Assembly: GCA_026707945.1 (NCBI GenBank) | Contig: JAPOVV010000025.1 | Location: 50,564-114,563, forward strand | Reading direction: 5' to 3' | Length of the DNA: 64,000 nucleotides | Source of the DNA: Gammaproteobacteria bacterium | GTDB lineage: Bacteria; Pseudomonadota; Gammaproteobacteria; Pseudomonadales; Azotimanducaceae | Shown here: one piece after another, positions 12,136 to 59,174 of the stretch | Layout of the letters: each line of letters opens with the position of its first letter | How positions within the stretch are numbered: position 1 is the stretch's first letter | Notes under the pieces: model-generated | Databases searched by the model: none | Seen by the model: only the letters and a program-made list of their open reading frames with translations | What the model was told of the DNA's origin: nothing | Program-made: the position numbers and the translations under genes

Positions 12136-12384
12136 TTAGTGGAAAGTGAAAATCGGTGGTTCCTCCAATCGGCGTCGGGGGAGTTCAATCTTGAAAGGTT
12201 CGACGCCTGCGAAGCACTCTCTCGTAAACGCTACTAGGTCGCCGGTGATCGGTTCTTCTTCCGTCACAGCTTCACGCAAGATGGCCAGCGCTTCCTCCTC
12301 TATTGAACGATTATGTTTTGCTGCACGCATCTTTAGACGCGCTTTGCTTTTGTCGTCGAGATTTCGAATCGTAATGCTTGCCAT
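12136..12384 (-). CDS. Ribbon-helix-helix antitoxin (FitA/VapB/Arc-type)
   Basis: 82-aa ORF starting MASITIRNLDDKSKARLKMRAAKHNRSIEEEALAILREAV, which matches the RHH antitoxin consensus. It sits directly upstream of the PIN remnant. Confidence 0.8.
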   Translation of the reverse strand: MASITIRNLDDKSKARLKMRAAKHNRSIEEEALAILREAVTEEEPITGDLVAFTRECFAGVEPFKIELPRRRLEEPPIFTFH

Positions 12385-12601: not shown

Positions 12602-14071
12602 TCAGAATGGTCGCTGATTGTCTGTATGGGCACACCAGCGCGAGGTTCGCAGAAACGGCAGGAGTTCAGCTAAGGCCGTTTTAGTACCTATCCGCTCAAG
12701 CGCTTCTGCTGCGTAGCCGCTAACGTAGCGATTGGTGTCGTAGAGCGCCGCTCCAAGTGCTGGCACGCTCTTTGCCTTCAGAGTGGTACTCGTACGCGTC
12801 GTCGCACGCATGAGCGACAAAGCCGCATCAAACCTCACTTCGGATGCCGGATCTTTCAAAGCTCCCAACATACCATCTACGCCTAATCCAGTTGGTTGTA
12901 GTAATCCAAGCGCTTCAATGGCAGCTACTCGCACATGGACTTCCTCGTCATGCAATGCCTGTACTAAACCTGAGGTCGCCGATTTGTCTCCTATCTCCCC
13001 CAGCGCAAATGCCGCATGTTTTCGAGCACGGTCGACTCCGTTTTTAAGTGTCGCAAGCAAGCCGTGAACCGCAGGTCGACCGATATGCACCAAAGCATGC
13101 GCAGCGTTTCTTGCAACCGCATCGTCGCGCCACAACGAGCCGTTATCCGAATACCGACGTTTTTCGTTGTAACCATTTGGATTGGATTGCAACGCATCGA
13201 GAAGGGGCGGTACCGCAAATTCGCCGCACTTTGCCAATTCGTACGAAGCTCGAATACCCTGCCACTCATCCGATTTTCCAAGACCGTTGATTGTCGTCGC
13301 CTTAGCGCGATTCTTACCAAAATCAACGCTTGAATCCGACCCGACTAACCAATCCCAAATACTCTCCCATACAGGGGAAAGGTCAGGCTTAACGACTCGT
13401 TTTGGCGCAATCCATACGCCTCGATCCGCAGGCTCCGGCTGACGCAAGCGGGTGAACTCAAACTTGAACATATACCGATTCATTTCAGTCTGGTTCAGCA
13501 TCTTTCGATGCCAAATGTCGTAGTGAATCAGCACCAAGCTACCAGCCTTGCCACTAATCGACGCAGGAATGCAATAGTCCGCAGGTTGCTGATTTAGATG
13601 CTGACTCCCGCTCATGACCGCAGTTGGACCTTTCCTAACCGGCGTACTTTGCGGAAAGTACATGATCATGACCCACCATGGACGGTGGTTTCTAACACGT
13701 CGAACATAACCCCAGTAGCTGTCTTTGTGGAAGCCCTGTTCTGGACTGCCTGGTGGGTTCGAATGCAGCGCTCGATGGGGGTGCATGCTGTATTCCTTCC
13801 CTAACACCGTTTGAAGAGCACCCTTTACGATCGGATCTTCAAAGAGTTCGCCGATTTCGGGTACCAGCGGTAGCAGGTTATTACCAAAGTGACCGTGCGA
13901 TTGACTTATCTGATCAAAGCGCTCAAAAATCAATCGATGGTAGGACGCCGGCAAACTCGACTGAAGTGGGAGAAATCCAGCCGCAATGAACTGACGCAAC
14001 TGCTCATTGGAGAGCGGAACAGGAGTAGTTCGAGCGTTGTGATCGCGCGCTTCGGTTGGATAAAGACGCAT
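12602..14071 (-). CDS. Fe(II)/2-oxoglutarate dioxygenase (PhyH family) fused to C-terminal HEAT-like repeats
   Basis: N-terminal half has HxD (GFHKDSYW) and a distal His (IHYDIWHRK). C-terminal ~200 aa carries repeated PBS-lyase/HEAT-like units (ARNAAHALVHIGRPAV, ARKHAAFALGEIGDKSA, VRVAAIEALGLL, VRFDAALSLMR, SGYAAEALERIGTKTA). The start overlaps the upstream stop (TAATG). Confidence 0.75.
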   Translation of the reverse strand: MRLYPTEARDHNARTTPVPLSNEQLRQFIAAGFLPLQSSLPASYHRLIFERFDQISQSHGHFGNNLLPLVPEIGELFEDPIVKGALQTVLGKEYSMHPHRALHSNPPGSPEQGFHKDSYWGYVRRVRNHRPWWVMIMYFPQSTPVRKGPTAVMSGSQHLNQQPADYCIPASISGKAGSLVLIHYDIWHRKMLNQTEMNRYMFKFEFTRLRQPEPADRGVWIAPKRVVKPDLSPVWESIWDWLVGSDSSVDFGKNRAKATTINGLGKSDEWQGIRASYELAKCGEFAVPPLLDALQSNPNGYNEKRRYSDNGSLWRDDAVARNAAHALVHIGRPAVHGLLATLKNGVDRARKHAAFALGEIGDKSATSGLVQALHDEEVHVRVAAIEALGLLQPTGLGVDGMLGALKDPASEVRFDAALSLMRATTRTSTTLKAKSVPALGAALYDTNRYVSGYAAEALERIGTKTALAELLPFLRTSRWCAHTDNQRPF

Positions 14072-14892
14072 TAGATGTTCGTCGCGAAGGGTATTTGCCC
14101 TTCACACCTTGGTCGTCTACCCCACACCATCAATCCAGGTCGCCCATGCGACTGACCTGCGAATTGCACGTTTTCTGGATTGCGATAGCCAACTCGAACC
14201 AGCCGACGTATCGTCCTCGAGGTGTTGATCCGTGAGCCATGGATCATGTGGATGCTAAATACGACCACATCCCCTCGTTTAGCTGGTACTGGAACTGTGT
14301 CCTCGAGATCCCACTCCCCTGTTGGCAGATGAGGTGTACAAGATCGACCGTCAGGGAATTCGACGACGTGCTCGAGTGGCCCTTCTTTGTGAGAGCCATC
14401 TAAGAAACGGATGCATCCATTAGTGTCGTCTGTGTCGTCTAAATGAATCAAGCAATCTACATATCTGCCATCGTGATGCTTGTAGAAAGCCCAGTCTTGA
14501 TGCATTGGAAATGGATGCCCGGTCGCGGGCGGCTTGGCATGCAGCGTCGTGTGATGCAGTTCGATATTCGGTCCAATCAGATCCGCGATTGCGCCCGCAA
14601 GCTTTGGATGGGTAACGGCATCGCACCACGCTTTTGAATACCTGTGTAAGTCGTGTAACGCGACGAGCTTGGACTGTTTCTCTACAGCTTCGCTCATATA
14701 CACACGTCGCCAACCGCCGCTCCAACCAGGACTGGCGTTCGCCCACGTCTCGATCTGCCAATCAAGCTCCTCCGCCATCGTATCGATTTCCCTATCGGAA
14801 TAAACGGCCGGGATATGAAGAAAACCGTGCTTGCGATAAAAATCGACGTCGCTCAGTGAAAGAACATTCGGTCTATTCACGGTCTGAATCAT
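14071..14892 (-). CDS. Phytanoyl-CoA dioxygenase (PhyH) family Fe(II)/2OG oxygenase
   Basis: HxD motif (PMHQDWAF) and distal His (IHMIHGSRIN). I prefer ATG 14892 (MIQTVNRPNV...) because GGAG lies 7 nt upstream. The track ORF extends to 14952. Confidence 0.8.
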   Translation of the reverse strand: MIQTVNRPNVLSLSDVDFYRKHGFLHIPAVYSDREIDTMAEELDWQIETWANASPGWSGGWRRVYMSEAVEKQSKLVALHDLHRYSKAWCDAVTHPKLAGAIADLIGPNIELHHTTLHAKPPATGHPFPMHQDWAFYKHHDGRYVDCLIHLDDTDDTNGCIRFLDGSHKEGPLEHVVEFPDGRSCTPHLPTGEWDLEDTVPVPAKRGDVVVFSIHMIHGSRINTSRTIRRLVRVGYRNPENVQFAGQSHGRPGLMVWGRRPRCEGQIPFATNI

Positions 14893-14993
14893 GCTGCTAC
14901 TCCGAGACATTAATCGCACGACAACTACATTGGAGATGAATGTAACGCGCAAGGTTTGACATTTTGAAGACGAGCCATTGGGGGTAGTTCGAT

Positions 14994-15989
14994 TTAGTCG
15001 TAACTTGGATCAATCATCCATTCCTCAAGATGGTCGATCACGTGATCCATCGTCTGGTAGCGTAAACCCGGTTCATGTGCGACGCAACTCATACAAATCT
15101 CCGACAAGTGCGCGGAGACTGGTACACCTCCCATACGAGCCGCAGGAGCAGGAATACGGCCGCGTCGCACAAAATCCAATACGCGACTAACCGTGTCACC
15201 CTGCACCATCCTGCGTAGCGTAAGTAGCTCGTACAAAATCGCCCCAAGACTATAGATATCAGATCGATGATCTACATCGTTGTGATTGACTAGCTGCTCT
15301 GGAGACATGTAGGCGGGGGTCGCGTCAAGGGGCGACTGCGCCGTTAACGTAACGGCTTCGTCTTTGGGTACCACGATTCGTGGTTTGTGCATTTCGAATT
15401 TGGGTTCCTCGCCCTTTCCCCAAACTTTTGCCAAGCCCCAATCGAGCAACAGTACTTCGTCAAATGCGCCGATCAGGATGTTCTCTGGCTTGACATCGCG
15501 ATGGACGACACCGTGTTGGTGAGCGTAGTGCAGCGCGTGCCCCACTTGGGATAGCACGTTGATCAGTTTCATCAATGAATGACCGCCTACGTTATGCGAC
15601 CCTGCTTCGGCACACGAATCCAAAATCTCGCGCATGGTCGCGCCATATACCAACTTCATGGTGAAATAAGGGTGCCCGTCCGAACTTCGACCTAACTCAT
15701 ACGTAGGTATCGTGTTAGGGTGCTGCAGCATCGCAGTGACGCGAGCTTCTCGCACGAAACGACGCTGCTGCATAGGATCATCGGCTAGTTCAGACCGCAA
15801 CTCCTTATAGCAGATCGTGCGCATAAGATGAAGATCCTTGCACGAACTTATGATGCACGTTCCGCCTTTTGCGATCGTCTTGAAGTAGGCGTATCGCATC
15901 CGTGAATCGGGATGCTTCGACAAGAGATGATCTGTGTCTTCTAATGTGACCCGTGGATAAGCAGTTTCACGGGTTGGATACCGAGACAT
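14994..15989 (-). CDS. Hanks-type serine/threonine protein kinase, kinase domain only
   Basis: Catalytic loop HRDVKPENILIG. DWG in place of DFG (LLLDWGLAK). SPE motif (AYMSPEQ). Invariant-Lys context ICYKEL. No TM segment or sensor domain. Confidence 0.9.
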   Translation of the reverse strand: MSRYPTRETAYPRVTLEDTDHLLSKHPDSRMRYAYFKTIAKGGTCIISSCKDLHLMRTICYKELRSELADDPMQQRRFVREARVTAMLQHPNTIPTYELGRSSDGHPYFTMKLVYGATMREILDSCAEAGSHNVGGHSLMKLINVLSQVGHALHYAHQHGVVHRDVKPENILIGAFDEVLLLDWGLAKVWGKGEEPKFEMHKPRIVVPKDEAVTLTAQSPLDATPAYMSPEQLVNHNDVDHRSDIYSLGAILYELLTLRRMVQGDTVSRVLDFVRRGRIPAPAARMGGVPVSAHLSEICMSCVAHEPGLRYQTMDHVIDHLEEWMIDPSYD

Positions 15990-16153: not shown

Positions 16154-16528
16154 TTGACGGCTGCGATATCACCTTCTACTCTACTACAAGAAGAATTTAG
16201 CGAACGAATACAGCTTTCACGCCGCGCACGGCAAAGACTTGCCCAGTTCGACCGTGTCAGTCTTAGTCAGCATACTGAGATGCGGGTGCGTCAGCGCGGT
16301 ATTTCCGAACTACAGATCGTGATCATGCTCTTGTTTGGAAATTCGTCTCCCGCCGGCGCAGCCGAACGATCATTCGCGCTCGACCAAGCAAGTCGGCAAG
16401 AGCTGCAGCGTGCGCTTGGTAGCCAGTATGCCCGTGTTTGCGACAGACTCGACTATTACCTCATCGTGAATCCGAGTGCGAAATGCGTTGTCACGTGCTG
16501 TCATCGACTAAAGCGTCCACATCGATGA
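16154..16528 (+). CDS. Small protein with a DUF4258-like motif
   Basis: HTEMRVRQRGISELQIVIMLLFG matches the H...R...RGIS core of DUF4258. The TTG start is uncertain and an internal ATG at MRVRQRG is possible. Confidence 0.45.
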   Translation: MTAAISPSTLLQEEFSERIQLSRRARQRLAQFDRVSLSQHTEMRVRQRGISELQIVIMLLFGNSSPAGAAERSFALDQASRQELQRALGSQYARVCDRLDYYLIVNPSAKCVVTCCHRLKRPHR

Positions 16529-16639: not shown

Positions 16640-17677
16640 GTGCGCGTCGCCATCGTCGTTTATATATTGCTAGTCGCGTTGGTCGCATTCAACGTCACAC
16701 AGGTGTTTGAACTCCCTGCCTGGATTGCTGCACCCGTAGTGCTAGTAGTCATCGGCGTCATAGCGATTGCCCATTTTGCAGTGGGCTCGTCAAATGTGCT
16801 CTATATGACACTAAGCACTATCAGCGTGATTAGTTTATTAGTTGTTAGCTTCACCGCATCACTACCCGCGTTCGCTGTAATCGACAACGGGAGCGGCTTG
16901 CAGTGGACAAGTAGCTTGATACCTCTATTCGTTTCGGCTATCGGGCTATACGGGGTTGGACTTTGGCTCAGGGCTGCAAGTGCAAGTCAAGCAGACGCAC
17001 TTGACTGGCTCGCAAACTTTCTAAGTGGACCTGGGCTTCTGCTATCACTTTTGACGGCACTCGTGTTAAGTGCAACGACGTTACTCGCACTTGAGTGGTT
17101 GGGCGAAACATGGTCCAGCTCGCAAGCCATCACTCGCCGCTTTCTAGAGCGCGGCATGATCCCACCCGCGACCGTACTGTTCTTTTATTGGGGCATGCTC
17201 ATTCTCGTTGGAAAATGGTGGAATACACTCTATCTTCGTGCTAGTCTCCAACGATGGCAGATCGGGCAAGAGTCGAACATCATCACGCATATTGATCGCA
17301 TCCGCGTGTTGTCCGACGATTCCGGCAGACTCGATGATCGACTAGAGTTCCTCTGGCGACGCCACGAGGAATCATTCACCGTACCCCGGTACATCGGGTG
17401 GGTTGTTCCAGTACTTGGCTTCATTGGCACGGTGCTCGGAATTTCCCTAGCCGCTGACGGTATTCGTAAGCTGATCGCTTCCGAATCAGGATTGAGTGGA
17501 CTATCCACGGAACTTGGCGCCGCTATTGCGCCGCTTGGCATTGCGTTCGATACTACTCTGATCGCGCTCTCGCTTAGCGTCCTGTTAATGCTGTCTCTAA
17601 CTCTGGTCCAGCGTAGTGAAGAGCGTGCGCTCAACACGCTAGAGCGACAACTGCGCGAAAGCGTTCGTGCCTTCTAA
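16640..17677 (+). CDS. MotA/TolQ/ExbB-family proton-channel protein with an extended N-terminal polytopic domain (about 8 TM)
   Basis: The C-terminal module PVLGFIGTVLGI...LGIAFDTTLIALSLSVLLM aligns with E. coli ExbB PFVGLFGTVWGI...PGIAEALLATAIGLVAAI. Six additional hydrophobic helices precede it. GTG start. Confidence 0.7.
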   Translation: MRVAIVVYILLVALVAFNVTQVFELPAWIAAPVVLVVIGVIAIAHFAVGSSNVLYMTLSTISVISLLVVSFTASLPAFAVIDNGSGLQWTSSLIPLFVSAIGLYGVGLWLRAASASQADALDWLANFLSGPGLLLSLLTALVLSATTLLALEWLGETWSSSQAITRRFLERGMIPPATVLFFYWGMLILVGKWWNTLYLRASLQRWQIGQESNIITHIDRIRVLSDDSGRLDDRLEFLWRRHEESFTVPRYIGWVVPVLGFIGTVLGISLAADGIRKLIASESGLSGLSTELGAAIAPLGIAFDTTLIALSLSVLLMLSLTLVQRSEERALNTLERQLRESVRAF

Positions 17678-18185
17678 GGAACGTCAGCCAGACGACGAAA
17701 GTAACGCGCCCATGATGGCGGTTTTTGGCGGGATGTTTGCGCTCATGCTGGTATTCCTACTTATCGTCAACATCTTTTCGGAATCGGCGGTTCGCGAACG
17801 CCTGCAAGACACTGCCGACGACGGTCTTTATCGAATTCAGAGCGAAACAGGCGGTTTTGGTTACGTCGTAATCGTGTTTCCGAGCACGCTCCGAATTGTT
17901 GAAACGGGCGAGGGAGTTGCGAGGGAGGAGATTTGCACACCGGGCAGTCCCTACCGTAACTATGCCGAACGAGTCTATCTAGATGGCGAGCAGCAACTGT
18001 TGTTCTTTGTCCTCGAAGGCAGCATTCCGATCATGGCAGAAGCTCGAAATTGCCTTGCGGCAATCTGGCCGGATCGCGAGATCAGGATTGGCTGGGTCAT
18101 TGCAGACAACGAGTTCTTGAAATCAGTGATGCTCGATGACATACCTTCGTATATTCGGGACTATACCGAAACTACAACACCATGA
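17667..18185 (+). CDS. Bitopic inner-membrane protein of ExbD/TolR-like size and topology (no membrane Asp)
   Basis: 172 aa: a charged N-terminus, one TM helix (MMAVFGGMFALMLVFLLIVNIF), then an ~130-aa periplasmic domain. Overlaps the upstream gene by 11 nt if GTG 17667 is used; the alternative start is ATG 17712. Confidence 0.55.
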   Translation: MPSKERQPDDESNAPMMAVFGGMFALMLVFLLIVNIFSESAVRERLQDTADDGLYRIQSETGGFGYVVIVFPSTLRIVETGEGVAREEICTPGSPYRNYAERVYLDGEQQLLFFVLEGSIPIMAEARNCLAAIWPDREIRIGWVIADNEFLKSVMLDDIPSYIRDYTETTTP

Positions 18186-19867
18186 TTTCAGCAGCTCGAC
18201 GCATCCCTAATTTCGCTGGTGTCGCGTTAGTCGACATCCTTGCAAACGGCGTCGCCGTATTGATCATCGTTATCGTGTTGAGCATCGCGAGTCGATTTGA
18301 GCAAGAAAAGGAGTACAGCGAACGGATTCAAGAAGTCTCTGCAGTGATGACGCGTGAATTCAGTACCTCATTGGTATTAAATCGACTCGCGGCAGGTCCG
18401 CCGGCAACTCTCCACGATTACGAGAACTCAGCACTCGATCAGGTTTGGGATCCCGCAATCATGCCAGTCTTGGAAATTCATAAGGACGTCGTGCGTGATC
18501 CTTATTCCGGGCGCGTCTGGCACCGATCTGAGCTTCTGCAAGAACCGAACAGCCTCGATGCTTTTCTCAGTGAATTCGATGCGTTTCAGCGCGAGTCAGT
18601 TCGCGGCGATTTTTACGATATCGGTACCTTTTATTTGTTAATGTCGATCCTTAAGGATCATTCGATCTTGATCACTCATTGGCATTTCGTCGGTGCAATG
18701 GGCATAGGTCAGGAAGCGAGCGTGGCTTCTTGTCCCGCAGGCATGAGTGCAAAGGATTGTGTAGGTCTAGGTGTGAGTGACCAGACGTCGACAATCGCTG
18801 ATGTATACGAGTCACTCACAAATGGAAGTGGCAATGGTGAAAACCAAGGTGACGGCGAATGGCCACCAAGTGAGTCCGAGTGGGATGACATCGGACAGGA
18901 AGGTCGCGCCAGTGCCGATTCCTTGCCGCAGGGCGCGCAACTTGGTCCAGGAGGGAGTGGGGATCTCGATGGAGAAAGCTTTCCCGATGTGCGCGCTTCC
19001 CGTAATCGACAGACAGGGCAAGGTCCGGGCGGTGCGGGAAACGTACCTGGATTCTCTATCCGGCTAGCAGACCCTACCGCCGAACTGGCAAGCCTGGGAT
19101 CAATTAATCTCGCGACGATTCAACAAGACCTTAAGGGCTTTTTAATCTCTTTAATGGCCTTTCTGAGTGAAATTCAGCATTTCTATGACAACGACAACCC
19201 GCCTACCGAGCTGCTTCAACAGTTTATTCCCATCCTACAGACTTTTCTGACCCAACCTCCCACACTTGACGACATCCAATTGGAAGTGGTTGAGGATCTC
19301 GCACTATCCCTCGAATTGCTCCACAATCAAGGTTACGTACACGATCAAGCCGAACCGCTGATTACACATCCCATACCTAGATCGGCACATCCCGAGGCGT
19401 TGATTCGTTTAGCCGTTAATCGCACACTAATCGAGGCTGAAATTCAATCGAATAACGTCGTGCTGTTAGATTCCGTTCCGGAGACCGCAAAGCTTCGATT
19501 CAATCTACAAGCCTATCCGGACATATGGCGAGGTATGCAAATTTCTGCAGAACGTAATGCCGTACTGCTTATGTCGCCCATTCAGTCTGAACCTGACGTC
19601 GCGAAATGGCGTGCAATCGCATATCTCTCCCCACATCTAGATGATTTCGTCGTTGGGTTTGTGTTTGGCGCTTATGACGAAGATGGCCATCTCGAAATCG
19701 TCGCGGAACCCAATCAAGGATTCATCGACACGATGCGACTAATGCCACAATGGGACCGAAGTCCTTTTAGCATCCAGACTTGGATGACAATGCTCTATGT
19801 CTTCGCCGGTCTCTCCCTAATTGCGTTGTTGTTCTTCTGGCGTCCAGGGACGCGATTTAGACGATGA
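18182..19867 (+). CDS. Large membrane protein with an ExbD/TolR-like Asp-containing N-terminal anchor and a C-terminal TM helix
   Basis: ATGA overlap with the upstream stop. N-terminal anchor FAGVALVDILANGVAVLIIVIVL (D18) resembles ExbD TPFIDVMLVLLIIFMV. Acidic/Gly-rich low-complexity segment at about nt 18821-19051. C-terminal helix WMTMLYVFAGLSLIALLFFW followed by basic residues. Confidence 0.6.
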   Translation: MISAARRIPNFAGVALVDILANGVAVLIIVIVLSIASRFEQEKEYSERIQEVSAVMTREFSTSLVLNRLAAGPPATLHDYENSALDQVWDPAIMPVLEIHKDVVRDPYSGRVWHRSELLQEPNSLDAFLSEFDAFQRESVRGDFYDIGTFYLLMSILKDHSILITHWHFVGAMGIGQEASVASCPAGMSAKDCVGLGVSDQTSTIADVYESLTNGSGNGENQGDGEWPPSESEWDDIGQEGRASADSLPQGAQLGPGGSGDLDGESFPDVRASRNRQTGQGPGGAGNVPGFSIRLADPTAELASLGSINLATIQQDLKGFLISLMAFLSEIQHFYDNDNPPTELLQQFIPILQTFLTQPPTLDDIQLEVVEDLALSLELLHNQGYVHDQAEPLITHPIPRSAHPEALIRLAVNRTLIEAEIQSNNVVLLDSVPETAKLRFNLQAYPDIWRGMQISAERNAVLLMSPIQSEPDVAKWRAIAYLSPHLDDFVVGFVFGAYDEDGHLEIVAEPNQGFIDTMRLMPQWDRSPFSIQTWMTMLYVFAGLSLIALLFFWRPGTRFRR

Positions 19868-21432
19868 AATGGCACGTTCCACTAGGGATACTGATCGTTC
19901 TTCTCGTCATTGGTTTGACGACGACATTGCTCAATGTCAATCGTGCCGACACCGAAACTCTTATAGTGCAACTCGGAGTGCAACACGCCACCTCGCCGAG
20001 CGCCAAACAGCTCGATCTAGCCGCCGTAACGGCGTATGAGCGCAATCAGTTTAGTAAAGAGCTAAAGCAGCGTCTTAATAAACCACGTCGAACGATTGAT
20101 TTAAGCGCATTCCTCGTGGACACCTGTGAGGTAAGTCAGCTTCAGTGGGAACAATTTGTAGAGTGGACCAGTCGTCAACCCGGCTTCGACGAATCTGAAG
20201 AAAACGACTGGCTGCAATCTTCTTCATCGGGTCATCGCATCGCGGGTCGATTGACTTCACCCGCGAGTGGTATTAATTTCAAAGGCGCAAGCGCTTACTG
20301 TAGTGCTGCGGGCGGTCGTCTGCCGTTTGCCGAGGAGTTCGAGGTGATGGCTAGTGGGGAGTCCTCGAATTTGTACCCATGGGGAGACATTTTCAAACCC
20401 GATGCTTGGCCTTTTAACAGCGCAGAACGCAATTCGTCTCAAGCTTGTGGCTCGCACGAATCTGCTGCAACACCATCGGGCATCCACGACTTGGCTAGTA
20501 ATGTAATGGAGTGGGGGCAAGGTCCAATGTATGCCCTAACTCTCGAATTTCGTCCGAGTATTCATGGCGCTCCAGCAGCACGACGCTCGCATCGTGAGCT
20601 CTATGCCTTGAACGCCGCATGGTTGCAAGCCGAGCCCTCGTTGAAATCACATCATTTGGGATTTCGCTGTGTATACGGTAAGCACCCACTCGTATTGCCG
20701 TGGCGTCGACGTCTACAGGATGTCGAGCAAATACCCGCCGATGCGTATGAAATCGGTCTCCCTGACGAGTCGCGCATACCGTTGTTTCTCGCCAACATGC
20801 CACAGGTACGAGGTATCAAACTTCGTGACCTGATACAAAGCGAAGCGTCAGAAGTTGAGGAACTAACTATTGATCGATGTGAAGTTCGTCGATCCGCATA
20901 CGCAAAGTTTCTTAGCGACCCTCTCGTTCAACTTGGTATGTTTAGCAATGAGAACCAACCATCTGAAATCGACTTTACACCGCTTGACTGGCTTGACCAA
21001 CTTGAGGACGAATCCTTGCCGGTTTATGGCGTGAACTGGTGGGCGGCAGATGCCTATGCACGCTGGTCTGGTGGGCGCCTTCCCACGGTGGAGGAGTGGC
21101 GCCAAATTGCTGCTGGATCATCTGGTTTTACCTATCCGTGGGGAATGTCTTATGAAGACAATGCGGCTCAGACTGGCGACGATGCGTCTTCGCGATTGCG
21201 CGCCTGTGGGTCGACTCAAAACGACACAACTGCGGCAGGCGTGGCTGATCTTGGCGGAAACCTGTCCGAATGGACACGTTCACTCAGCGCCCGGAATTCA
21301 CGTCTATCAATGTGGGTACAGGGGGGTAATTGGTTGTTGCCTGGCAAAGAGACCGCCAAATCACTATTTGGCCGAACTGTACCGCTAACACATCGTTCTA
21401 GTTCTATCGGATTTCGTGTCGTATACGATTGA
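19864..21432 (+). CDS. Signal-anchored protein with two tandem FGE-sulfatase (SUMF1/PvdO/GldK-type) domains
   Basis: ATGA overlap with the upstream stop. TM helix VPLGILIVLLVIGLTTTLL. Domain 1: CEVSQLQWEQFV...AAGGRLPFAEEFE...YPWGD...HDLASNVMEW...LGFRCVY. Domain 2: CEVRRSAYAKFL...WSGGRLPTVEEWR...YPWG...ADLGGNLSEW...IGFRVVYD. Confidence 0.8.
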   Translation: MKWHVPLGILIVLLVIGLTTTLLNVNRADTETLIVQLGVQHATSPSAKQLDLAAVTAYERNQFSKELKQRLNKPRRTIDLSAFLVDTCEVSQLQWEQFVEWTSRQPGFDESEENDWLQSSSSGHRIAGRLTSPASGINFKGASAYCSAAGGRLPFAEEFEVMASGESSNLYPWGDIFKPDAWPFNSAERNSSQACGSHESAATPSGIHDLASNVMEWGQGPMYALTLEFRPSIHGAPAARRSHRELYALNAAWLQAEPSLKSHHLGFRCVYGKHPLVLPWRRRLQDVEQIPADAYEIGLPDESRIPLFLANMPQVRGIKLRDLIQSEASEVEELTIDRCEVRRSAYAKFLSDPLVQLGMFSNENQPSEIDFTPLDWLDQLEDESLPVYGVNWWAADAYARWSGGRLPTVEEWRQIAAGSSGFTYPWGMSYEDNAAQTGDDASSRLRACGSTQNDTTAAGVADLGGNLSEWTRSLSARNSRLSMWVQGGNWLLPGKETAKSLFGRTVPLTHRSSSIGFRVVYD

Positions 21433-21577: not shown

Positions 21578-22861
21578 TTGCGTCCTAGCGTATTGGCGCT
21601 ACTGAGTGCTGTGAAAACTCGATTAAATCGCTTCGCAGTCTGTATGCGAAGTTGCTCCTTAGCATGGTTCTCTGTAAATCTGTTGTTACTTACAGCAAAC
21701 TACGCGGCATTCGACGAGCCCGAACTCGAAGAGACAAACTCCCTAGATGTTCTGCGCGAACATGTTGAATTGGGAGAATTCCAGTTAGCGGTCGATGAAG
21801 TATCCATTCAAATCAATGAAATACGCAAAGAGAGTGGGAACTTTTCGGCTCGTTTGGCGGAACCTTATATCGTTCTCGGTGATGCGCAATTAGGTCTCGG
21901 CGAAGTGGAAGATGCAGTTGATTCCTTTACGACCGCGCTCAAGGTCACACGAATGAATAAAGGATTGAACTCGACAGACCAAATGTCGTCGCTGTATCGC
22001 ATCGCGGCCGCGCAGGCTGAACTAGGGGAATATCAAAACGCCAATGAAGCTCATGAGCGCGCTTACGCCATCATGCTCAATCAGCTAGGTTCGAAGAACC
22101 CTCAGTTGCTGCCAAGCATGTTGAATCTCATCGACTGGTACGAGTCCAATCGAAGATTTTCCGCAGCCAAAATCTTGTACATTGAAGCAATCCAGATTGC
22201 GAATCGAGCTATCCCAAAAGATGACGTACGACAGGTTGAACTAGCACGCGCCTTCGCTGCGGGAATGCGCAACACGGTTTTCCCGCCAATGGATGGTGAT
22301 AGTAGGTATCGAGGATTCGACGTTGAGGTGCCTGGTTACGAGCCACCACCACCAGGCAAGTCACCACCGAGCTCTTATTCTTTAGGTCAACGGGCTCTAA
22401 TAGACGTCGTTAATTTCGTTGAAACTCATGCGCCAAGTGATCGTGAAACCATCGCGTTGGCGAAACTCAACTTGGCAGACTGGCATCAATTATTTGGGAG
22501 GGAATCCAAAGCAACGAGGATGTACCGCGACATCTGGGTGGAGCTTGATTCTTTACCGGAACTTCGCAAGTCCTTTTTTAGTGAGCCAAAAATTCTCTAT
22601 ATTCGACTACCTGAATTTAGTGCGTCGTCTGACACAACTCAGTTTGGTGTCGTCGAGTTGCTGCTGACGGTTTCTTATCGAGGTGCCGTCACTGGACGAA
22701 TTAGCCAAGTTGTCGAGCCGCCGAACACAGACATCGAATTCCGAACACGTGTAGCGGCGCGTGAAGCGCGTTTTCGTCCTGCTATAAAAGATGGTAGACC
22801 CTTGACGACACGTGATTTTCTCTTAACACACTACTATCCGCTGCCGAAGCGCACACCCTAG
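21578..22861 (+). CDS. TPR-repeat protein with a Pro-rich spacer and a TonB C-terminal-like domain
   Basis: Signal/anchor LAWFSVNLLLLTANYAAF. The TTG 21578 start is uncertain; ATG 21644 gives MRSCSLAWF.... TPR-like helical repeats occupy about aa 60-230. Pro-rich VPGYEPPPPGKSPPSS. C-terminus VVELLLTVSYRGAVTGRISQVV...ARFRPAIKDGRPL resembles TonB_C. Confidence 0.65.
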   Translation: MRPSVLALLSAVKTRLNRFAVCMRSCSLAWFSVNLLLLTANYAAFDEPELEETNSLDVLREHVELGEFQLAVDEVSIQINEIRKESGNFSARLAEPYIVLGDAQLGLGEVEDAVDSFTTALKVTRMNKGLNSTDQMSSLYRIAAAQAELGEYQNANEAHERAYAIMLNQLGSKNPQLLPSMLNLIDWYESNRRFSAAKILYIEAIQIANRAIPKDDVRQVELARAFAAGMRNTVFPPMDGDSRYRGFDVEVPGYEPPPPGKSPPSSYSLGQRALIDVVNFVETHAPSDRETIALAKLNLADWHQLFGRESKATRMYRDIWVELDSLPELRKSFFSEPKILYIRLPEFSASSDTTQFGVVELLLTVSYRGAVTGRISQVVEPPNTDIEFRTRVAAREARFRPAIKDGRPLTTRDFLLTHYYPLPKRTP

Positions 22862-23188
22862 ATAACTGTCTTTTAAGCTAGTTCGCCTAATTTTGAAATT
22901 TTCGAGATTAAATTAACCTAATTTACCAACGCAGTAATTTCGACCGCCACGCTACCACACAAGTAACTTTTATCAACGCGCTGATCATATCAATCTAACA
23001 CAAAGCGTCTCAGACTAATACACACTTCCTACGAGCAAGATTCTTTCCTCTGTGAGCAAAACTATCCTACATATTGAATTTGCAGTGATGAATGCTCATT
23101 TTTTCCTTAATATATACGACATTTGGTGAACGGCCGGAGAACGGATTTATCGTCTCCTCCGTGTCGCATTTATGGGAAGGGGAAATAA

Positions 23189-26100
23189 ATGAACCCACTG
23201 CGAACCTTATGGTTGTGCGTCTTCTCACTAGCATTCGTCGTTAGCGCTCCGTGGGCTCTAGCACAAGACGATGACGGTACTGAAGCAAGTACCGAAGAAG
23301 AGGCTGAGACCGTCGTAGAAACGGCCGAAATCGAAGGGGATGCGACTGCAGAACCAGCCGCAGAACCTATGGAGGAGGTCGTTGTTACTGGTTCCCGTTT
23401 AAAACGGACCACCTTCGAGAGTATCTCGCCGCTTCAAATCGTGAACGCGGAAATTTCACGGGAAGCGGGACTAGTTGATGCCGCAGAGATCATCCAGACC
23501 TCGACGTCTTCTGCCGACGTGCAGATCGATCTTACCTTCTCTGGATTCGTCTTGGACAATGGTCCTGGCGCTTCCACGGCAAACCTTCGTGGCCTGAGTT
23601 CAGACCGAACGCTGATTCTTTTGAATGGTCGACGGATGGCACCAGGTGGCGTCGAAGGCGCGCCTAGCAATCCTGACCTTAATTTGATTCCAGCATCCTT
23701 GGTCGCTCAATATGACTTCTTGCTGGATGGTGCTTCATCCGTCTACGGTTCAGATGCTATTGCCGGGGTCGTCAACGTCATACTTCGTAAGGACTTTAAC
23801 GGGTTCGAAATTCGTGGTTCGACGGACAATACGGATGCATTCGGTCCTTCAAGTTCCGATCTTTCGTTCACGTGGGGACAGAACTTTGGTCGAGGCTTTG
23901 TCGGCGCTGCTGCGACCGTGCGTAGAGACCCTCTCATCCGCTTTGAAGATGCACCTTTCACGCGCGAGTGTGAAAAGCACTATGAGATTGATGAAAACGG
24001 GATGATTCGCACGGACGATGTGTATTACCTCGAAAGATTCGGCGTCGACGCAACGCCGTGTCGCTCCGGAGGTACGACGAATGTTATTTGGGGTCTACCG
24101 CAGGGTATCGGAACACTTTATTGGACGCGTGGCAGAACGAATGGTGGTTGGCCTAACTTCTCCGAATCGCACCTTTTCTTAGGCGGTCGGCTCATTTGGT
24201 GGGATGGCGATGGTGATGGTTTAAACGACGTTGATTTCAAGGAAAACTGGGCGAACGCGACCAACCAATATCGAACGCTATATAACGAATTCAATCAAGA
24301 CAGTTTTATGGCGTACGGTGAATATACGTTTGAAGGCGAAATGAACGTTACGCCGTTCTTCGAGTCGCTTCATGTTAGGCGTACCACTCATTCAGAAACT
24401 ATGGTTCCCCAAGTCTTTCCGAGAGTACATCCCCTCTATCCCTTTAACCCTTGTAACCCGCTAGGTCACGGTGTCGATTGCGGACTGGCTCGTGATGCGC
24501 TCTTGAACAATCCAGCCGTTGTCGCGGCAATTGAGAACGTTTTCGGTTGTACGGTTAATACTGGTGGTACGTGTGACCAAACCAGTGGCCCGATCGGTCC
24601 GGTACCAGTAGGTATCGTCATCCGCGTCGACGGAGACCGCCATATCACCGATACTGAGGTCACTCAATCCCGGTGGGTGGCTGGCGTCAACGCCGATCTT
24701 CCGTTTCTAGATGATGCGTGGGGGCTGAGTAATTGGTCCGGGGAATTTAGCGTGACATATACGAGTACGATCGGGATTTCCACTCTAGGAGGGATACGAG
24801 ACGACCGTTTGAGCCTTGCGATAGGTTCGTATTCGCGGGCTGGGATTCCCTGCTCTGCGGACGGCGTACCTGCTTCAGTCCTTCAACCTGACACGGCACC
24901 AGGTTGCGTGCCGGTCAATGTGTTCGCACCTAGTTTGTGGGATGAGTCACTTAGGGGTGGCAAGTTCGCAACAGAAGCAGAATGGAACTATCTCTATGAC
25001 GTCAGGGAGTTTGATACGCGTGTATCACAGCGGCTCATGAACGTTTACCTTACAGGCGAGACCTTCAATCTTCCCTACGGCCCTGTGGTGGCAGGAATTG
25101 GTTTTGATCATCGTGTTGACACGATTGACTCCATCCCGAATGCGGTCTCTGCAGAAGGGTTGCTATACGGTTATTCTGCTGACCAGGGGGCGATCGGTGA
25201 GAAGACGACTCGAGAAGCTTTCTTAGAGTTCGAGCTCCCTCTATTAGCAAACTTTACATTGGTGGAAGAACTCACCCTCAATATCTCAGGACGATCAACA
25301 ACAGACGAGTACTACGGGACTCATCCGACTTATTCAGCAAAGTTAGGCTATCGTCCTGTAAATTGGATGCTGCTCCGCGCAACGAGAGGTACTTCTTATC
25401 GTTCGCCTAACCTTCGTGATTCGTTCCTGTTGCAACAGACAGGCTTCCTGAACATCTTTGACCCGTGTGTGACACCCGAAGATGCACTTGACGAAGTTAC
25501 TGGCGAGTACATACCTTCAGAAGATCGAAGGGAAGCAATCGTGTTGACCAATTGCGAGTTGAACGGTGTTGACCCAAGAAGCTGGGACAACAACGGATTC
25601 GCCGTATATAACACCGAAGTAGCGGCAGGGGGATCACTAGATCTAGAACCTGAGACTTCGAATTCGTTCTCCGGCGGAATTGTTGTTGAACAACCCTGGA
25701 CTACCGCTTTTGACTTGACGGTGGGGATGAGCTATTACGAGATTGACGTTGATAACACCATCATCGAACCTTCGGCTGGATACATCGTTTCTGATTGCTA
25801 CAACTCACCGACTAGCTCAAGTCCATTTTGCGGCCGCATTCACCGATCAGGCGATCCCGAAGATCCTTCAATCGAGTACATCGACCGAGGCTTTATCAAT
25901 CGTGATAACGACACGGTAAGGGGAGTTGACTACAACATCAACTTCCAAGATACGTTTACGTTGTTCGATCGACCTTTTGAATTTGAGGTAAACTGGATAT
26001 CACACCGACTCATTGAGCGTTCAACCCTCTTTATCAACCCTCTCGGAACGGATGACGAACAAGAGTTCTTCTCCGAATGGGGATTCACGCAATGGCGTCA

Positions 26101-26488
26101 CACGGCTACTTTTTCCCTCGAATTCTCAGACTTTCGGTTCACCTATCGACCTAGGTACATCGGTCAGCAGGATACTGACCCAGAGAGCGTCGACGATTTT
26201 GACGACGGTATCGTCGGTTTCTCCGACACATGCTATGGTCCACCAGATGATGTGCTGTGTCGCGACATCGGAAATGCCGATTCATATCTCAATCACACGA
26301 TCGGGATGCGATACGAGAAATACAACTGGGAAGTCGTACTCAGCGTGCAAAACCTAACCAACGAAGAGCCTCCATTGGTCGATGCTAGTGAGGTCTTCTC
26401 TCGGAGTAATCGACCCCTTGGTGTGGGATACGACCTGCTAGGTAGAACTTTCTTCCTGAGCGCTGGGTTCCGCTTCGGAGGTAGTTAA
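23189..26488 (+). CDS. TonB-dependent outer-membrane receptor (1099 aa)
   Basis: Signal peptide (..SAPWALA-QDD). Acidic ~40-aa extension, then plug start EEVVVTGSRLKRT...ISPLQIV. NLRGL and ILLNGRR motifs. Long beta-barrel ending FFLSAGFRFGGS. GGGGA lies upstream of the ATG. Confidence 0.9.
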   Translation: MNPLRTLWLCVFSLAFVVSAPWALAQDDDGTEASTEEEAETVVETAEIEGDATAEPAAEPMEEVVVTGSRLKRTTFESISPLQIVNAEISREAGLVDAAEIIQTSTSSADVQIDLTFSGFVLDNGPGASTANLRGLSSDRTLILLNGRRMAPGGVEGAPSNPDLNLIPASLVAQYDFLLDGASSVYGSDAIAGVVNVILRKDFNGFEIRGSTDNTDAFGPSSSDLSFTWGQNFGRGFVGAAATVRRDPLIRFEDAPFTRECEKHYEIDENGMIRTDDVYYLERFGVDATPCRSGGTTNVIWGLPQGIGTLYWTRGRTNGGWPNFSESHLFLGGRLIWWDGDGDGLNDVDFKENWANATNQYRTLYNEFNQDSFMAYGEYTFEGEMNVTPFFESLHVRRTTHSETMVPQVFPRVHPLYPFNPCNPLGHGVDCGLARDALLNNPAVVAAIENVFGCTVNTGGTCDQTSGPIGPVPVGIVIRVDGDRHITDTEVTQSRWVAGVNADLPFLDDAWGLSNWSGEFSVTYTSTIGISTLGGIRDDRLSLAIGSYSRAGIPCSADGVPASVLQPDTAPGCVPVNVFAPSLWDESLRGGKFATEAEWNYLYDVREFDTRVSQRLMNVYLTGETFNLPYGPVVAGIGFDHRVDTIDSIPNAVSAEGLLYGYSADQGAIGEKTTREAFLEFELPLLANFTLVEELTLNISGRSTTDEYYGTHPTYSAKLGYRPVNWMLLRATRGTSYRSPNLRDSFLLQQTGFLNIFDPCVTPEDALDEVTGEYIPSEDRREAIVLTNCELNGVDPRSWDNNGFAVYNTEVAAGGSLDLEPETSNSFSGGIVVEQPWTTAFDLTVGMSYYEIDVDNTIIEPSAGYIVSDCYNSPTSSSPFCGRIHRSGDPEDPSIEYIDRGFINRDNDTVRGVDYNINFQDTFTLFDRPFEFEVNWISHRLIERSTLFINPLGTDDEQEFFSEWGFTQWRHTATFSLEFSDFRFTYRPRYIGQQDTDPESVDDFDDGIVGFSDTCYGPPDDVLCRDIGNADSYLNHTIGMRYEKYNWEVVLSVQNLTNEEPPLVDASEVFSRSNRPLGVGYDLLGRTFFLSAGFRFGGS

Positions 26489-26510
26489 ACTCGTCCCTTC
26501 TTAATTGTTC

Positions 26511-26544
26511 ATCGACGCGCCGCATGTCGGCGCGTCGATTTTTT
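26511..26544 (+). terminator. Rho-independent terminator after the TBDR gene
   Basis: Perfect 12-bp stem ATCGACGCGCCG (26511-26522) / CGGCGCGTCGAT (26528-26539) with a 5-nt loop, followed by a T-run to 26544. Confidence 0.8.
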
Positions 26545-26557
26545 AACGGTTAACATC

Positions 26558-28534
26558 ATGTTTGATCCAATCCGTACCGTATTAGCAGTCGTCGCACTCA
26601 CTATGGTGTCGACGGTCATGGCGAAAGATCCTCTTCCAGTCGATGCATGGCTTGAGACGGATGTGATCGCCGCAAGCCTCTCTCATGATGGCACATATCT
26701 TGGTGTGCTTCGCGAAGACAAAGAGCGCGAAGGTCACAGAGTGATCTGGGTGTATACGTTTGACGAGGAAGGCAGTTTAGTACTTCATCGCCGTGTCAAC
26801 TCAACTACGATGCGTATCGGCGCATTCAACTGGTTAAGTGACACCCATTTCATTATGGGACTGCGACAGCAAGTCCGTAATCGAATAGACGGTTTTAATC
26901 AAGGGGTATACCGAGGGAAGAGTCAGATCGTTGATCTGGCCAAGGGTGAATTTGTTCCGCTACCGATTCAAAATGCCGGAATTGAGCATCCATTGCCGAA
27001 CAAACCTACCAAACTCATCGTTTCCGAAGATACCAATGGGAGCCGTAGCGGTAGGCGGACGATCGGTGAAGGCTCATTCTGGCACAGCTACTACGAGTTC
27101 GACCTTTCAACCATGCGCAAAAAGCTGTTGCTACGGGCGAAATTCATGCTGCAGAATGTTCGTTTTGATATCGACGGCAATCCCGAACTAGCAGCCGGTT
27201 TCGATTTAGACTCGTTAGAGTCTGTGTACCAATATCGACCAGACCCCAACGATTCGAATTGGGTCGAGTTCGGACGATCACACATCGAAGATTTCGAGAC
27301 CTTCGCTCCTGTCGGGATCGATCACAACAAACCGCACCACGAATATGTGATCGCGCACAACGGGCAGGACAAACAAGCACTTTGGTCCTATGACAAGCGG
27401 AATCGAAAATTCAGCGAACTCGTGTACGGTCGCAAAGATATAGACGTCCTCGGTACGATCAACCATTCGAATCGGCTTGAGCACTACGGTCAAGTCGCAG
27501 GAGTCGTTACTCTCAAAGATCGAGTGGAGTACGAGTTTTTCCCTGAGCATGAAATGGAAGGGGCTATTCACTCTCAGTTTGCGCAATTGATCGAAAACGA
27601 ATTTACACCGAGAGTGGTAAGCGTTAGTCGTGACGGTCAAACGATGGTAGTGAGGAATAGTGGACCCAAATCCGCGCCGAGTTTCTACCTGTTTCGCAAG
27701 GGCAGATTCAGTTATCTCGGTACGGTTCTACCAAAAATCAACAGTGAACACCTATCTGAAACAACCTATGTCGAATATCCCGCACGCGATGGACTGACGA
27801 TTCCTGGTTATGTGACAACCCCTGTACACGGCGAGCCACCGTTTCCTTTGATAGTAATGCCGCACGGCGGACCCTTCGTGACGGAAGGAGTTGGATTTGA
27901 CCCCTGGGCTCAACTGCTCGCGAATAACGGATTCATGGTCCTCCAGCCCCAATATCGTGGATCACACAACTACGGATTGGATTTCTACAAGACGGCATTC
28001 ATCGAAAAGAGCGAAGCCGGTTACGCGATGCAAGACGACAAAGATGATGGAGCCCTGTATCTGATAGAACAAGGCCTCGTCGATCCTAATCGTATGGCCA
28101 TGTTCGGCTGGTCCTACGGTGGTTATGCCGCGCTGACCGCCTCAATGCGGACCCCTCAAATCTATCAGTGTGCAGTCGCGGGTGCAGCTGTCTCTGACCC
28201 AATCATGCAAGTCAACTATTACCGCTATCGAGTAGACGGCGTGCAAAAAATCGAACAGTTGAATGCATGGACTGGAGCTTTTTCACCGTTCCGGGAAGTC
28301 GCAAAAGTGAACATTCCACTGTTCGTCATCCACGGCGACAATGACCAGCGCGTTCCGGTCGACCATAGCCGCAAGCTGATTAAAAAACTTGAGGATCTTG
28401 ATATCGACCACAAATATCTTGAAATCAAAGGTATTGACCACTTCAGCGATACGATGAAAAAGTCGCACCTAAAACTCTTCTATACGGAATTGATCGATTA
28501 CTTGAAAAACGATTGCGGACCTGACGGGCTCTAG
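26558..28534 (+). CDS. S9-family serine peptidase (prolyl oligopeptidase/dipeptidyl-peptidase type), exported
   Basis: Signal peptide. N-terminal beta-propeller-like region. C-terminal alpha/beta-hydrolase domain with nucleophile motif GWSYGGY and a distal D/H region (IHGDNDQRV...GIDH). Confidence 0.9.
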   Translation: MFDPIRTVLAVVALTMVSTVMAKDPLPVDAWLETDVIAASLSHDGTYLGVLREDKEREGHRVIWVYTFDEEGSLVLHRRVNSTTMRIGAFNWLSDTHFIMGLRQQVRNRIDGFNQGVYRGKSQIVDLAKGEFVPLPIQNAGIEHPLPNKPTKLIVSEDTNGSRSGRRTIGEGSFWHSYYEFDLSTMRKKLLLRAKFMLQNVRFDIDGNPELAAGFDLDSLESVYQYRPDPNDSNWVEFGRSHIEDFETFAPVGIDHNKPHHEYVIAHNGQDKQALWSYDKRNRKFSELVYGRKDIDVLGTINHSNRLEHYGQVAGVVTLKDRVEYEFFPEHEMEGAIHSQFAQLIENEFTPRVVSVSRDGQTMVVRNSGPKSAPSFYLFRKGRFSYLGTVLPKINSEHLSETTYVEYPARDGLTIPGYVTTPVHGEPPFPLIVMPHGGPFVTEGVGFDPWAQLLANNGFMVLQPQYRGSHNYGLDFYKTAFIEKSEAGYAMQDDKDDGALYLIEQGLVDPNRMAMFGWSYGGYAALTASMRTPQIYQCAVAGAAVSDPIMQVNYYRYRVDGVQKIEQLNAWTGAFSPFREVAKVNIPLFVIHGDNDQRVPVDHSRKLIKKLEDLDIDHKYLEIKGIDHFSDTMKKSHLKLFYTELIDYLKNDCGPDGL

Positions 28535-58273: not shown

Positions 58274-58342
58274 GAGTTCGGTAGTTTAGTCCTACGACTT
58301 TTTTTCGACTGTTTCAACGTGTTTCGAGTGAAGTTAGACCCG

Positions 58343-58972: not shown

Positions 58973-59174
58973 GTAAACCGAATCAACATTTGTGAGGCTT
59001 ATTTTATTCTTACAGCTTAGATACGAATCCTCTTACTTGATTTTAAAACAATCCAAACTACGAACGTTTTAGGAGCACGACAAAACTAGATAAGTACTAA
59101 ATGTTTCTGTATACATTGGGAAATGCTTTTCTAATTTCACTGAAAGCCAATAGATAAGTTACTTCCCAATTAAA

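Follow-up and report, generated by a model that had tools for sequence, protein, structure and literature searches.

A conserved four-gene cassette of sponge-associated bacteria, joining a divergent MotA/TolQ/ExbB-family protein to a tandem FGE-sulfatase-fold protein, is a candidate ion-driven envelope complex

What is made by four overlapping genes, the first of which encodes a relative of the MotA/TolQ/ExbB channel subunits and the last a protein with two FGE-sulfatase-fold domains? The question is raised by a stretch of 64,000 nucleotides (hereafter the window) from a Gammaproteobacteria bacterium of the Azotimanducaceae (assembly GCA_026707945.1, contig JAPOVV010000025.1, positions 50,564 to 114,563 of the forward strand), in which these genes, here termed g1 to g4, occupy positions 16640 to 21432. 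An earlier reading of the letters alone (the sequence-only reading) proposed that they might encode an undescribed machine of the envelope driven by the proton-motive force. The analysis reported here confirms the observation on which that interpretation was built and supports the interpretation itself in part. We regard it as an even call whether the four proteins constitute one inner-membrane complex around a stator-type, proton-driven ion channel.

The four open reading frames (ORFs) lie on the + strand where the sequence-only reading had placed them: g1 (16640-17677, 345 amino acids), g2 (17667-18185, 172 amino acids), g3 (18182-19867, 561 amino acids), and g4 (19864-21432, 522 amino acids). 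Each gene overlaps the next. The GTG start of g2 at 17667 precedes the end of the TAA of g1 (17675-17677), an overlap of 11 nt, and ATGA overlaps of 4 nt join g2 to g3 (18182-18185) and g3 to g4 (19864-19867). This GTG start appears to be real because A14 and P15 of g2, which are invariant in 47 homologues, precede the first ATG, and because there is no further start codon between the GTG and that ATG. An AAGGA ribosome-binding site is found 7 nt ahead of the GTG of g1. By hydropathy, g1 has eight hydrophobic segments, g3 has two (residues 14-32 and 534-552), and g2 and g4 have one each.

Homology searches returned 753 relatives of g1, 157 of g2, and 271 of g3, most of them unnamed or "hypothetical protein" from uncultured bacteria. 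The invariant helix motifs of g3 were used as seeds to scan a collection of genomes from 185,579 species; this gave 79 loci (L003-L081), all but one of which are in metagenome-assembled genomes (MAGs). Together with two ENA contigs, these are the 81 loci that were examined first, and the order g1-g2-g3-g4 is kept in every one of them as far as the contigs extend. Two of the most divergent members (g3 profile E values of 1e-27 to 1e-44) have the same order, namely a MotA-like gene, a gene of ~170 amino acids, g3, and an FGE-sulfatase gene, so that the four-gene order held in 83 of 83 loci when it was checked in related genomes. The family-wide medians of the three junctions are -11, -4, and -4 nt, the longest ORFs being used. 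In an all-against-all clustering of the ORFs of these loci, g1 to g4 were the only universal families; the flanks are unrelated, and no neighbour beyond the four genes is universally conserved. Some metagenomic gene calls fuse neighbours within the cassette, either g3 with g4 (P0364, P0449, and P0487) or g2 with g3 (P0379 and P0468). If real, such fusions would point to physical interaction, but they may equally be frameshift artefacts and were set aside as evidence, since single-base assembly errors at the 4-nt overlaps would produce them.

The claim that g1 ends in a MotA/TolQ/ExbB module holds. Residues 234-335 (17339-17644, by the Pfam boundaries) match PF01618 at 25.7 bits, against a gathering cut-off of 22.9, and the same family is matched by 43 of 47 g1 relatives, with a best E value of 3.6e-7. 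An hhalign comparison with a profile of nine annotated ExbB/TolQ proteins, taken from plasmid records, gave a probability of 72.7% (P 3.2e-5) over 80 columns across both channel helices. The matched region is the hairpin of the seventh and eighth transmembrane (TM) helices, equivalent to TM2-TM3 of ExbB, and g1 thus has five additional N-terminal helices before the canonical three, with a cytoplasmic loop of only ~57 residues and a C-terminal tail of ~20 residues beyond the last TM helix. The motifs PVLGFIGTVLGI and LGIAFDTTLIALSLS are present. Among 47 sequences, the stretches G260-G267 (including T264) and G300-L307 (including D304, T305, and T306) are invariant, as is GxxGTVxG, the motif that contains the channel Thr. 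In an alignment to TM2 of E. coli ExbB with 44% identity over 25 columns, the helix IGWVVPVLGFIGTVLGI falls opposite IGAISPFVGLFGTVWGI; in the profile alignment, D304 and T305/T306 are offset by 1-3 residues from E176 and T181 of ExbB. Judged by its sequence, g1 is a remote and divergent but true member of the MotA/TolQ/ExbB family.

Which of the partners carries the acidic residue of a stator? The N-terminal TM helix of g3 (residues 12-35, 18215-18286) is near-invariant at G13, L16, D18, I19, L20, A21, N22, and G23, with D18 (codon 18233-18235) and N22 invariant. D18 is invariant in 60 aligned sequences; the Asp is found in 211 of the 211 family members that match the strict motif, and also in all the variant motifs of other N-terminally intact members (LADILAN, LSDILAN, LIDIFAN, LVDVTSN, and so on). 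In the AlphaFold2 (AF2) model of g3, which has a mean predicted local distance difference test (pLDDT) score of 72.6, a long helix that starts at residue 12 forms the TM segment and continues into the periplasm. Next comes a periplasmic N-domain (residues ~75-170, 18404-18691, pLDDT ~85) with the order strand-strand-strand-helix-strand-helix-strand, which is 55-60% identical across phyla by tblastn; in the model, its alpha/beta fold covers residues ~96-169. Then come a Gly/Pro/Ser-rich, low-complexity linker (residues ~197-288, 18770-19045, pLDDT <50), which varies in length between lineages and is much longer, with large insertions, in some relatives, and a C-domain (residues ~290-510, 19049-19711, pLDDT ~90) in which a helical bundle is combined with a beta-sandwich. 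The protein had been described as bitopic, a second, C-terminal TM helix at residues 531-552 (19772-19837) having been missed; W534 and Y539 are conserved in it, and a basic tail, WRPGTRFRR, follows. From this two-TM layout of the model, both ends of g3 are predicted to be cytoplasmic and ~500 residues to be periplasmic.

Pfam, NCBIfam, and PADLOC hold no family for g3. A profile search of 1.84 billion representatives yielded 161 proteins at the threshold of E<=0.001; 150 of them reach E<=1e-10, and the 11 weakest were not inspected. The g3 family therefore looks small and closed, and no link to ExbD or to any other family was detected in its sequences. Across phyla, residues 1-190 of g3 are 47-60% identical and its C-domain only ~27-31%.

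The second gene encodes a bitopic protein with a TM helix at residues ~14-43 and, in its AF2 model, a periplasmic alpha/beta domain at residues 64-145. None of the other three proteins is as well conserved: g2 has a mean column identity of 61% and an identity of 55-68% to the protein of the window across phyla. Its TM helix has the invariant residues P15, A18, F20, G21, G22, and F24 and no acidic residue; the invariant Ala18 stands at the position equivalent to the Asp, in agreement with the earlier description of g2 as a second bitopic protein without a TM Asp. No Pfam, NCBIfam, or PADLOC model covers g2, and the MotB_plug family is touched by just 2 of 47 relatives (E 0.028). Over the cassette as a whole, conservation is highest in the TM helices of g2 and g3 and in their membrane-proximal domains, and lowest in the linker and C-domain of g3.

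The fourth protein was taken to be signal-anchored with two FGE-sulfatase domains, and so it is: PF03781 matches in two stretches (E 1.2e-48), the domains extend over residues ~69-270 and 325-521, and an anchor lies at residues 5-23 (19876-19932). The best PDB match is SUMF2/pFGE, a non-catalytic paralogue (5.6e-12), and the other PDB relatives are FGE and EgtB. In active FGE, a catalytic CxxxxC pair precedes the C-terminal GFRC. Among 75 members of the g4 family, the conserved cysteines are 88, 146, 195, and 269, plus 339 and 448 only; the domains end in GFRC and GFR, and a CxxxxC pair before either end was not found. On these alignments, g4 is a protein of the FGE-sulfatase fold that has lost the catalytic cysteines. 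In this it resembles SUMF2/pFGE, PvdO, and PorK/GldK/GldJ, whereas it differs from them in being tandem, carried on an inner-membrane anchor, and encoded by the last gene of a stator-like operon. Since its N-terminus is a long hydrophobic anchor of the uncleaved type, and since the family alignment shows no lipobox Cys at the N-terminus of g4 in any lineage, it is a periplasmic protein anchored in the inner membrane. In one very divergent locus (L082, 4715-11715), g4 has a thioredoxin domain between its two FGE domains, and downstream of it lie a second gene of the FGE-sulfatase type and trypsin, Trypco2, AAA, and S8 peptidase genes. At locus L002 (11626-13274), an ankyrin-repeat gene and a further FGE-sulfatase gene stand directly after g4.

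The presence of this fold beside a motor-like subunit had led to a comparison with the type IX secretion system (T9SS). In GldL-GldM/PorL-PorM with GldK/PorK, an inner-membrane motor, a long periplasmic bitopic protein, and a non-catalytic FGE-fold protein are likewise encoded together, and the cassette might be a proteobacterial analogue of the T9SS/gliding GldKLMN apparatus in which g1 stands for GldL, g3 for GldM, and g4 for GldK. The layout is similar, and g4 partially matches GldK. However, this match to TIGR03525 covers 40 residues only and reaches 30 bits, against a cut-off of 350; g1 to g3 have no sequence relationship to the Gld/Por proteins, with no match to GldL, GldM, GldN, or PorP/SprA. 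Moreover, GldK, PorK, and GldJ are lipoproteins, whereas g4 has no lipobox Cys, has tandem domains, and is anchored in the inner membrane, to which the second TM helix of g3 may be added. Beside the cassette there is no GldN/PorN and there are no outer-membrane components, nor is a translocon or ring partner conserved nearby. The analogy is weak, and a T9SS of this kind is barely credible.

How, then, might the four proteins work together? The stator reading is based on the family membership of g1, on the absolutely conserved, buried Asp together with the channel motifs, and on the conservation gradient, which is centred on the membrane, as expected for a tightly packed intramembrane machine. 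Most likely, g1 would form the pentameric ring typical of the MotA/TolQ/ExbB family, and the N-terminal helices of g3, with D18, and of g2, without an acidic residue, would sit in or against this ring. D18 would be the proton acceptor, and proton flow would move a g2/g3 "axle" relative to g1. The motion would be passed to the periplasmic parts, that is, the alpha/beta domains of g2 and g3, the linker and C-domain of g3, and g4, which would be a binding or scaffold module rather than an enzyme. As all four proteins have inner-membrane anchors, the site of action is probably the periplasm or the inner face of the envelope; with the C-terminus of g3 back in the inner membrane and g4 fixed there as well, an output in the periplasm is more likely than one at the outer membrane. 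We infer in this way a stoichiometry of 5:2 (or 5:1:1), proton flow through D18, a contact between g3 and g4, and a physiological output.

A heteromeric axle is plausible since the helices of g2 and g3 are both extremely conserved, since their domains are similarly ordered (in the AF2 models, the two proteins have the same succession of strands and helices after the TM helix), and since there is a loose precedent. AglR is encoded with two different bitopic partners, AglQ and AglS, which are recognisable TolR homologues, both with the Asp. The AglR-AglQ-AglS gliding motor of Myxococcus and Bdellovibrio is therefore like the cassette in having one MotA/TolQ-like subunit and two different small bitopic partners. 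It differs from the cassette, the partners of which are not recognisable as TolR/ExbD, carry the Asp in g3 only, and come with no Glt-type partners. AglRS has been placed among the non-flagellar homologues (PMC12505986).

Several results weigh against the stator reading. One concerns the channel subunit: the g1 family profile found no ExbB, TolQ, or MotA chain at E<=1 among the PDB sequences, which is why g1 is called a remote member and why its family membership rests on Pfam and hhalign. Others concern the partners. The Pfam models for ExbD, MotB, and TolR gave no match at E<=10 in 47 g2 and 14 g3 relatives, PF02472 being absent from both, and a PDB profile search gave no significant match of g2 or g3 to ExbD, TolR, or MotB. 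Nothing was found in the cassette loci by jackhmmer starting from E. coli ExbD, the query sequence of which was verified against 6tyi. In hhalign comparisons with a profile of 15 ExbD/TolR sequences from plasmid loci, the P values were 0.028 for g2 and 0.14 for the N-terminal part of g3, compared to 0.09 and 0.55 for two negative controls; these values are indistinguishable from those of the controls and hence show no significant similarity of g2 or g3 to ExbD/TolR. A profile of 3 sequences gave a colinear but non-significant alignment with both D18 of g3 and A18 of g2 opposite D25 of ExbD, and this placement of D18 is a lead rather than a test. Nor did hhalign find similarity between g2 and the N-domain of g3.

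The predicted structures add further points on the same side. With the g3 model, Foldseek found no PDB match better than E 0.5, and none to TolR/ExbD. With the g2 model, the match that ranks second and has the highest probability is E. coli TolR (5by4; probability 0.72, E 0.068), but it is a weak one, with a TM-score of 0.48 normalised to the target; the resemblance of the modelled fold to TolR is suggestive and not significant. It is nonetheless a hint in favour of the stator reading, as is the succession of strands and helices, which in both g2 and g3 is compatible with the TolR/ExbD fold. The second TM helix of g3 returns its C-terminus to the inner membrane, unlike the known stator B-subunits, which argues against a simple force transmitter spanning the periplasm. 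Finally, no outer-membrane partner is conserved among the cassette loci.

It follows that g2 and g3 must be rejected as ExbD, TolR, or MotB by sequence, neither the profiles, Pfam, jackhmmer, nor hhalign having given significance. The term "ExbD-like", as applied to both proteins in the sequence-only reading, is valid for architecture only: the helix has its N-terminus inside, that of g3 has one buried Asp, and the small alpha/beta domain has its strands and helices in a matching order. A single conserved Asp towards the cytoplasmic end of the N-terminal TM helix, as in ExbD/TolR, is present in g3 and absent from g2. What stands of the ExbD/TolR-like anchor proposed for g3 is the invariant, membrane-embedded D18; what does not stand is a significant sequence similarity.

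Is the cassette nevertheless one of the known systems? It resembles ExbB-ExbD/TolQ-TolR in the two channel helices of g1 with their GxxGTVxG motif, in the small bitopic partner gene that follows directly, in the overlap of the genes, in the single invariant Asp near the cytoplasmic end of one partner helix (that of g3), and in the periplasmic domain of g2, which has a TolR-like order and the weak Foldseek match to TolR. It differs from these systems in the 8 TM helices of g1, as opposed to 3, and its short cytoplasmic region; in having two distinct partners, with the Asp in g3 only and without detectable homology to ExbD/TolR; in the length of g3, with its novel C-domain and second TM helix; and in its core, which is without TonB, TolA, TolB, and Pal and has an FGE-fold protein as an obligatory fourth component. 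Tol-Pal was rejected because no TolA, TolB, Pal, or YbgC/CpoB is encoded in the window or among the conserved neighbours, and Mot because neither g2 nor g3 has a match to an OmpA-like peptidoglycan-binding domain. As the sequence-only reading had maintained, the cassette does not fit canonical Ton, Tol-Pal, Mot, or Zorya, and it does not fit T9SS either. No published description of the system was found: neither literature searches nor a recent phylogenetic survey of MotAB relatives revealed a stator gene that had been reported in linkage with genes of FGE-sulfatases. The cassette is thus best described as a MotA/ExbB-type complex with novel partners.

Where it occurs may say something about its function. 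In the 185,579-species collection, nearly all carriers of the cassette are sponge-associated MAGs. The named carriers are Ca. Azotimanducaceae, other Pseudomonadales, Ca. Spongiihabitans, Ca. Poriferihabitaceae, Ca. Porisulfidus, and Arenicellales, to which are added Nitrospirales (3), Myxococcota (1), Spirochaetales (1), "Deltaproteobacteria" (1), an alphaproteobacterial MAG (two contigs), and Thioalkalivibrio sp. HK1, a sponge-derived genome; the bin series COS, RHO, STY, CLI, and SB06xx are sponge metagenome bins. A few divergent members come from elsewhere (a coral MAG, Guaymas sediment, and a sea cave). Published work describes Spongiihabitans and Porisulfidus as known symbionts of sponges, and sponge genome projects are the source of the chromosome-level MAG records (PMC12988363, PMC12859430). 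The Azotimanducaceae (HTCC2089) otherwise include many free-living seawater bacteria (PMC12625764). The label "proteobacterial" originally given to the cassette proved too narrow, since MAGs of Nitrospirales, Myxococcota, and Spirochaetales carry it too.

A neighbour-joining tree of g1+g2+g4, which carries no support values, mixes the taxa: Nitrospirales, Myxococcota, and Alphaproteobacteria are nested among Arenicellales lineages, and the Azotimanducaceae fall into two distant clades. This pattern suggests a horizontal spread of the cassette within sponge microbiomes. Mis-binning is unlikely to explain it because several of the cross-phylum carriers are single-chromosome assemblies. No match to the cassette was found among 72,556 plasmids. 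The distribution suggests that the cassette serves life inside sponges. The fuller proposal, namely an unrecognised ion-driven machine in which a g1 pentamer round a g2+g3 axle with a single Asp drives the g3 C-domain and g4, and which has spread horizontally for life in sponges, is offered tentatively, as possible rather than probable.

A patchy, horizontally spread distribution in sponge symbionts is also compatible with defence, and the cassette might be a Zorya-like system for anti-phage defence or conflict, set off when a MotAB-like complex detects damage to the envelope. ZorA-ZorB is, like the cassette, a MotAB-like complex outside motility. The ZorA models match g1, over the channel helices only, at 12-20 bits, and the best PDB sequence match of the TM region of g2 is chain F of 8qyd (E 0.22), labelled only "Membrane protein"; 8qyd is the Zorya ZorAB complex, with ZorB as chain F. 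In addition, one divergent locus continues with the trypsin, Trypco2, AAA, and S8 peptidase genes mentioned above. Yet the ZorA models match weakly, and Zorya models give nothing for g2 to g4; the tail of g1 is short, at ~20 residues, where ZorA has a long cytoplasmic tail; there is no peptidoglycan-binding ZorB domain; and neither ZorC, ZorD, or ZorE genes nor a nuclease or other effector are conserved. The neighbourhood in the window is one of housekeeping genes (aceE-like, spoT, recG, ubiA, glmS, glmU, a UvrD-type helicase, and a Kdo transferase), an ordinary chromosome rather than a defence island, and the absence of plasmid matches points the same way. An assignment to Zorya was therefore rejected, and a system of this kind is quite improbable.

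The flanking genes offer two further explanations. Certain neighbours recur in the Pseudomonadales/Azotimanducaceae clade only: a Ser/Thr protein kinase in 25 loci, a TonB-dependent receptor in 23, an S9 peptidase in 18, and a TPR protein in 16. In the window, the cassette is followed on the + strand by the clade-specific, non-core genes g5 (21578-22861), which encodes a TPR protein with a signal-peptide-like N-terminus and a weakly TonB_C-like C-terminus, and g6 (23189-26488), which encodes a TonB-dependent receptor with Plug and TonB_dep_Rec domains. One explanation is that g1 to g3 are a Ton-like energiser that replaces ExbB/ExbD for the receptor g6, with g5 as the coupling protein and g4 as a substrate-binding accessory. 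In the 23 loci with a receptor, its gene as a rule lies downstream of g4 and is separated from it by g5 or other genes; the association with the receptor and the TPR protein persists down to 41-45% identity in g3, and the S9 peptidase follows in 18 loci. Besides TPR_12 (5e-14), g5 matches TonB_C (E 0.03) and the N-terminal part of the receptor MxcH. The TonB_C match is nevertheless below the cut-off, the hhalign comparison with TonB is not significant, and the N-terminus of g5 looks like that of a secreted protein rather than a TonB-type anchor, so that g5 cannot be assigned to TonB with any confidence. Furthermore, outside the Pseudomonadales clade there is no receptor or TonB-like gene beside the cassette, and the universally conserved g3 and g4 have no role in any known Ton system. 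The claim that the coupled unit is without a TonB is therefore borne out for the conserved core, but it has to be qualified for this clade, with its g5 and its downstream receptor. A Ton-like energiser, though appealing within the clade of the window, is unlikely.

The block at 21578-28534 on the + strand, which comprises the TPR protein, the unusually large receptor (1099 amino acids), and an S9 prolyl-oligopeptidase-family protein, occurs in the clade of the window only and may be a peptide-uptake module.

The other explanation involves no motor at all: g1 would be a channel or scaffold that keeps g4, as a periplasmic binding protein, at the membrane, and a ligand in the periplasm, such as sulfated glycans or peptides of the host, would be sensed or processed by the complex. 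In one clade, it might signal via the neighbouring Ser/Thr kinase (14994-15989, - strand; Pkinase 3.4e-33), a clade-specific, non-core gene that is oriented divergently from the cassette. FGE-sulfatase domains do act as ligand-binding or sensor modules fused to kinases, and the PDB matches include the Ser/Thr kinase ToxD (7spq); 25 loci have kept the divergent kinase gene; and each of the four proteins has an inner-membrane anchor, with no conserved partner in the outer membrane. However, the kinase is absent outside that one clade, and the combination of MotA/ExbB channel motifs with a buried Asp that is strictly invariant marks proton-coupled stators and not passive scaffolds. For these reasons, we consider a non-motor complex rather unlikely and keep to the stator reading.

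Some other features of the loci deserve mention. The genes transcribed divergently from the cassette on the - strand are, besides the kinase, those of a PhyH dioxygenase (14071-14952) and a PhyH-like/HEAT-repeat protein (12602-14071). The kinase matches the PD-T4-6 kinase models of PADLOC at 196 bits, which may reflect the generic kinase fold only. Between the kinase and g1, an ORF of 124 amino acids (16154-16528, + strand) has a weak match to DUF4258 (E 0.067), and the start of an ORF of 82 amino acids (12136-12384, - strand; MASITIRNLDDKSKARLK...) resembles, by eye, a ribbon-helix-helix antitoxin; these two ORFs may be toxin-antitoxin remnants. Far downstream, positions 58001-60000 of the window have a G+C content of 0.451, compared to ~0.51 elsewhere, and a strongly negative GC skew (-0.135); this region contains an ORF of 209 amino acids (58343-58972, - strand) and the gene of a thioredoxin/AhpC-like protein (59175-60365, - strand). 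In a single case (L083, 5386-6947; GCA_900118405.1), the cassette is followed by the genes of an APH-family kinase and an NTP_transferase, a pair that resembles AmgK/MurU of peptidoglycan sugar recycling.

All four proteins of the cassette are at present annotated as "hypothetical" or only generically. Each of the known 5:2-type motors (Mot, Ton, Tol, Agl, GldLM, and Zorya) has opened a field, and a further family would widen the design space of such machines, with partners that are not recognisable as those of other stators, possibly a heteromeric axle with a single Asp, and an FGE-fold component that is obligatory. If the proposal is true, the function in the sponge might be, for example, the handling of polymers of the host matrix or a remodelling of the envelope for persistence in the host. 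The near-confinement of the cassette to sponge-associated bacteria from at least five major lineages makes it a testable candidate for a determinant of symbiosis, in a field where few molecular mechanisms are known.

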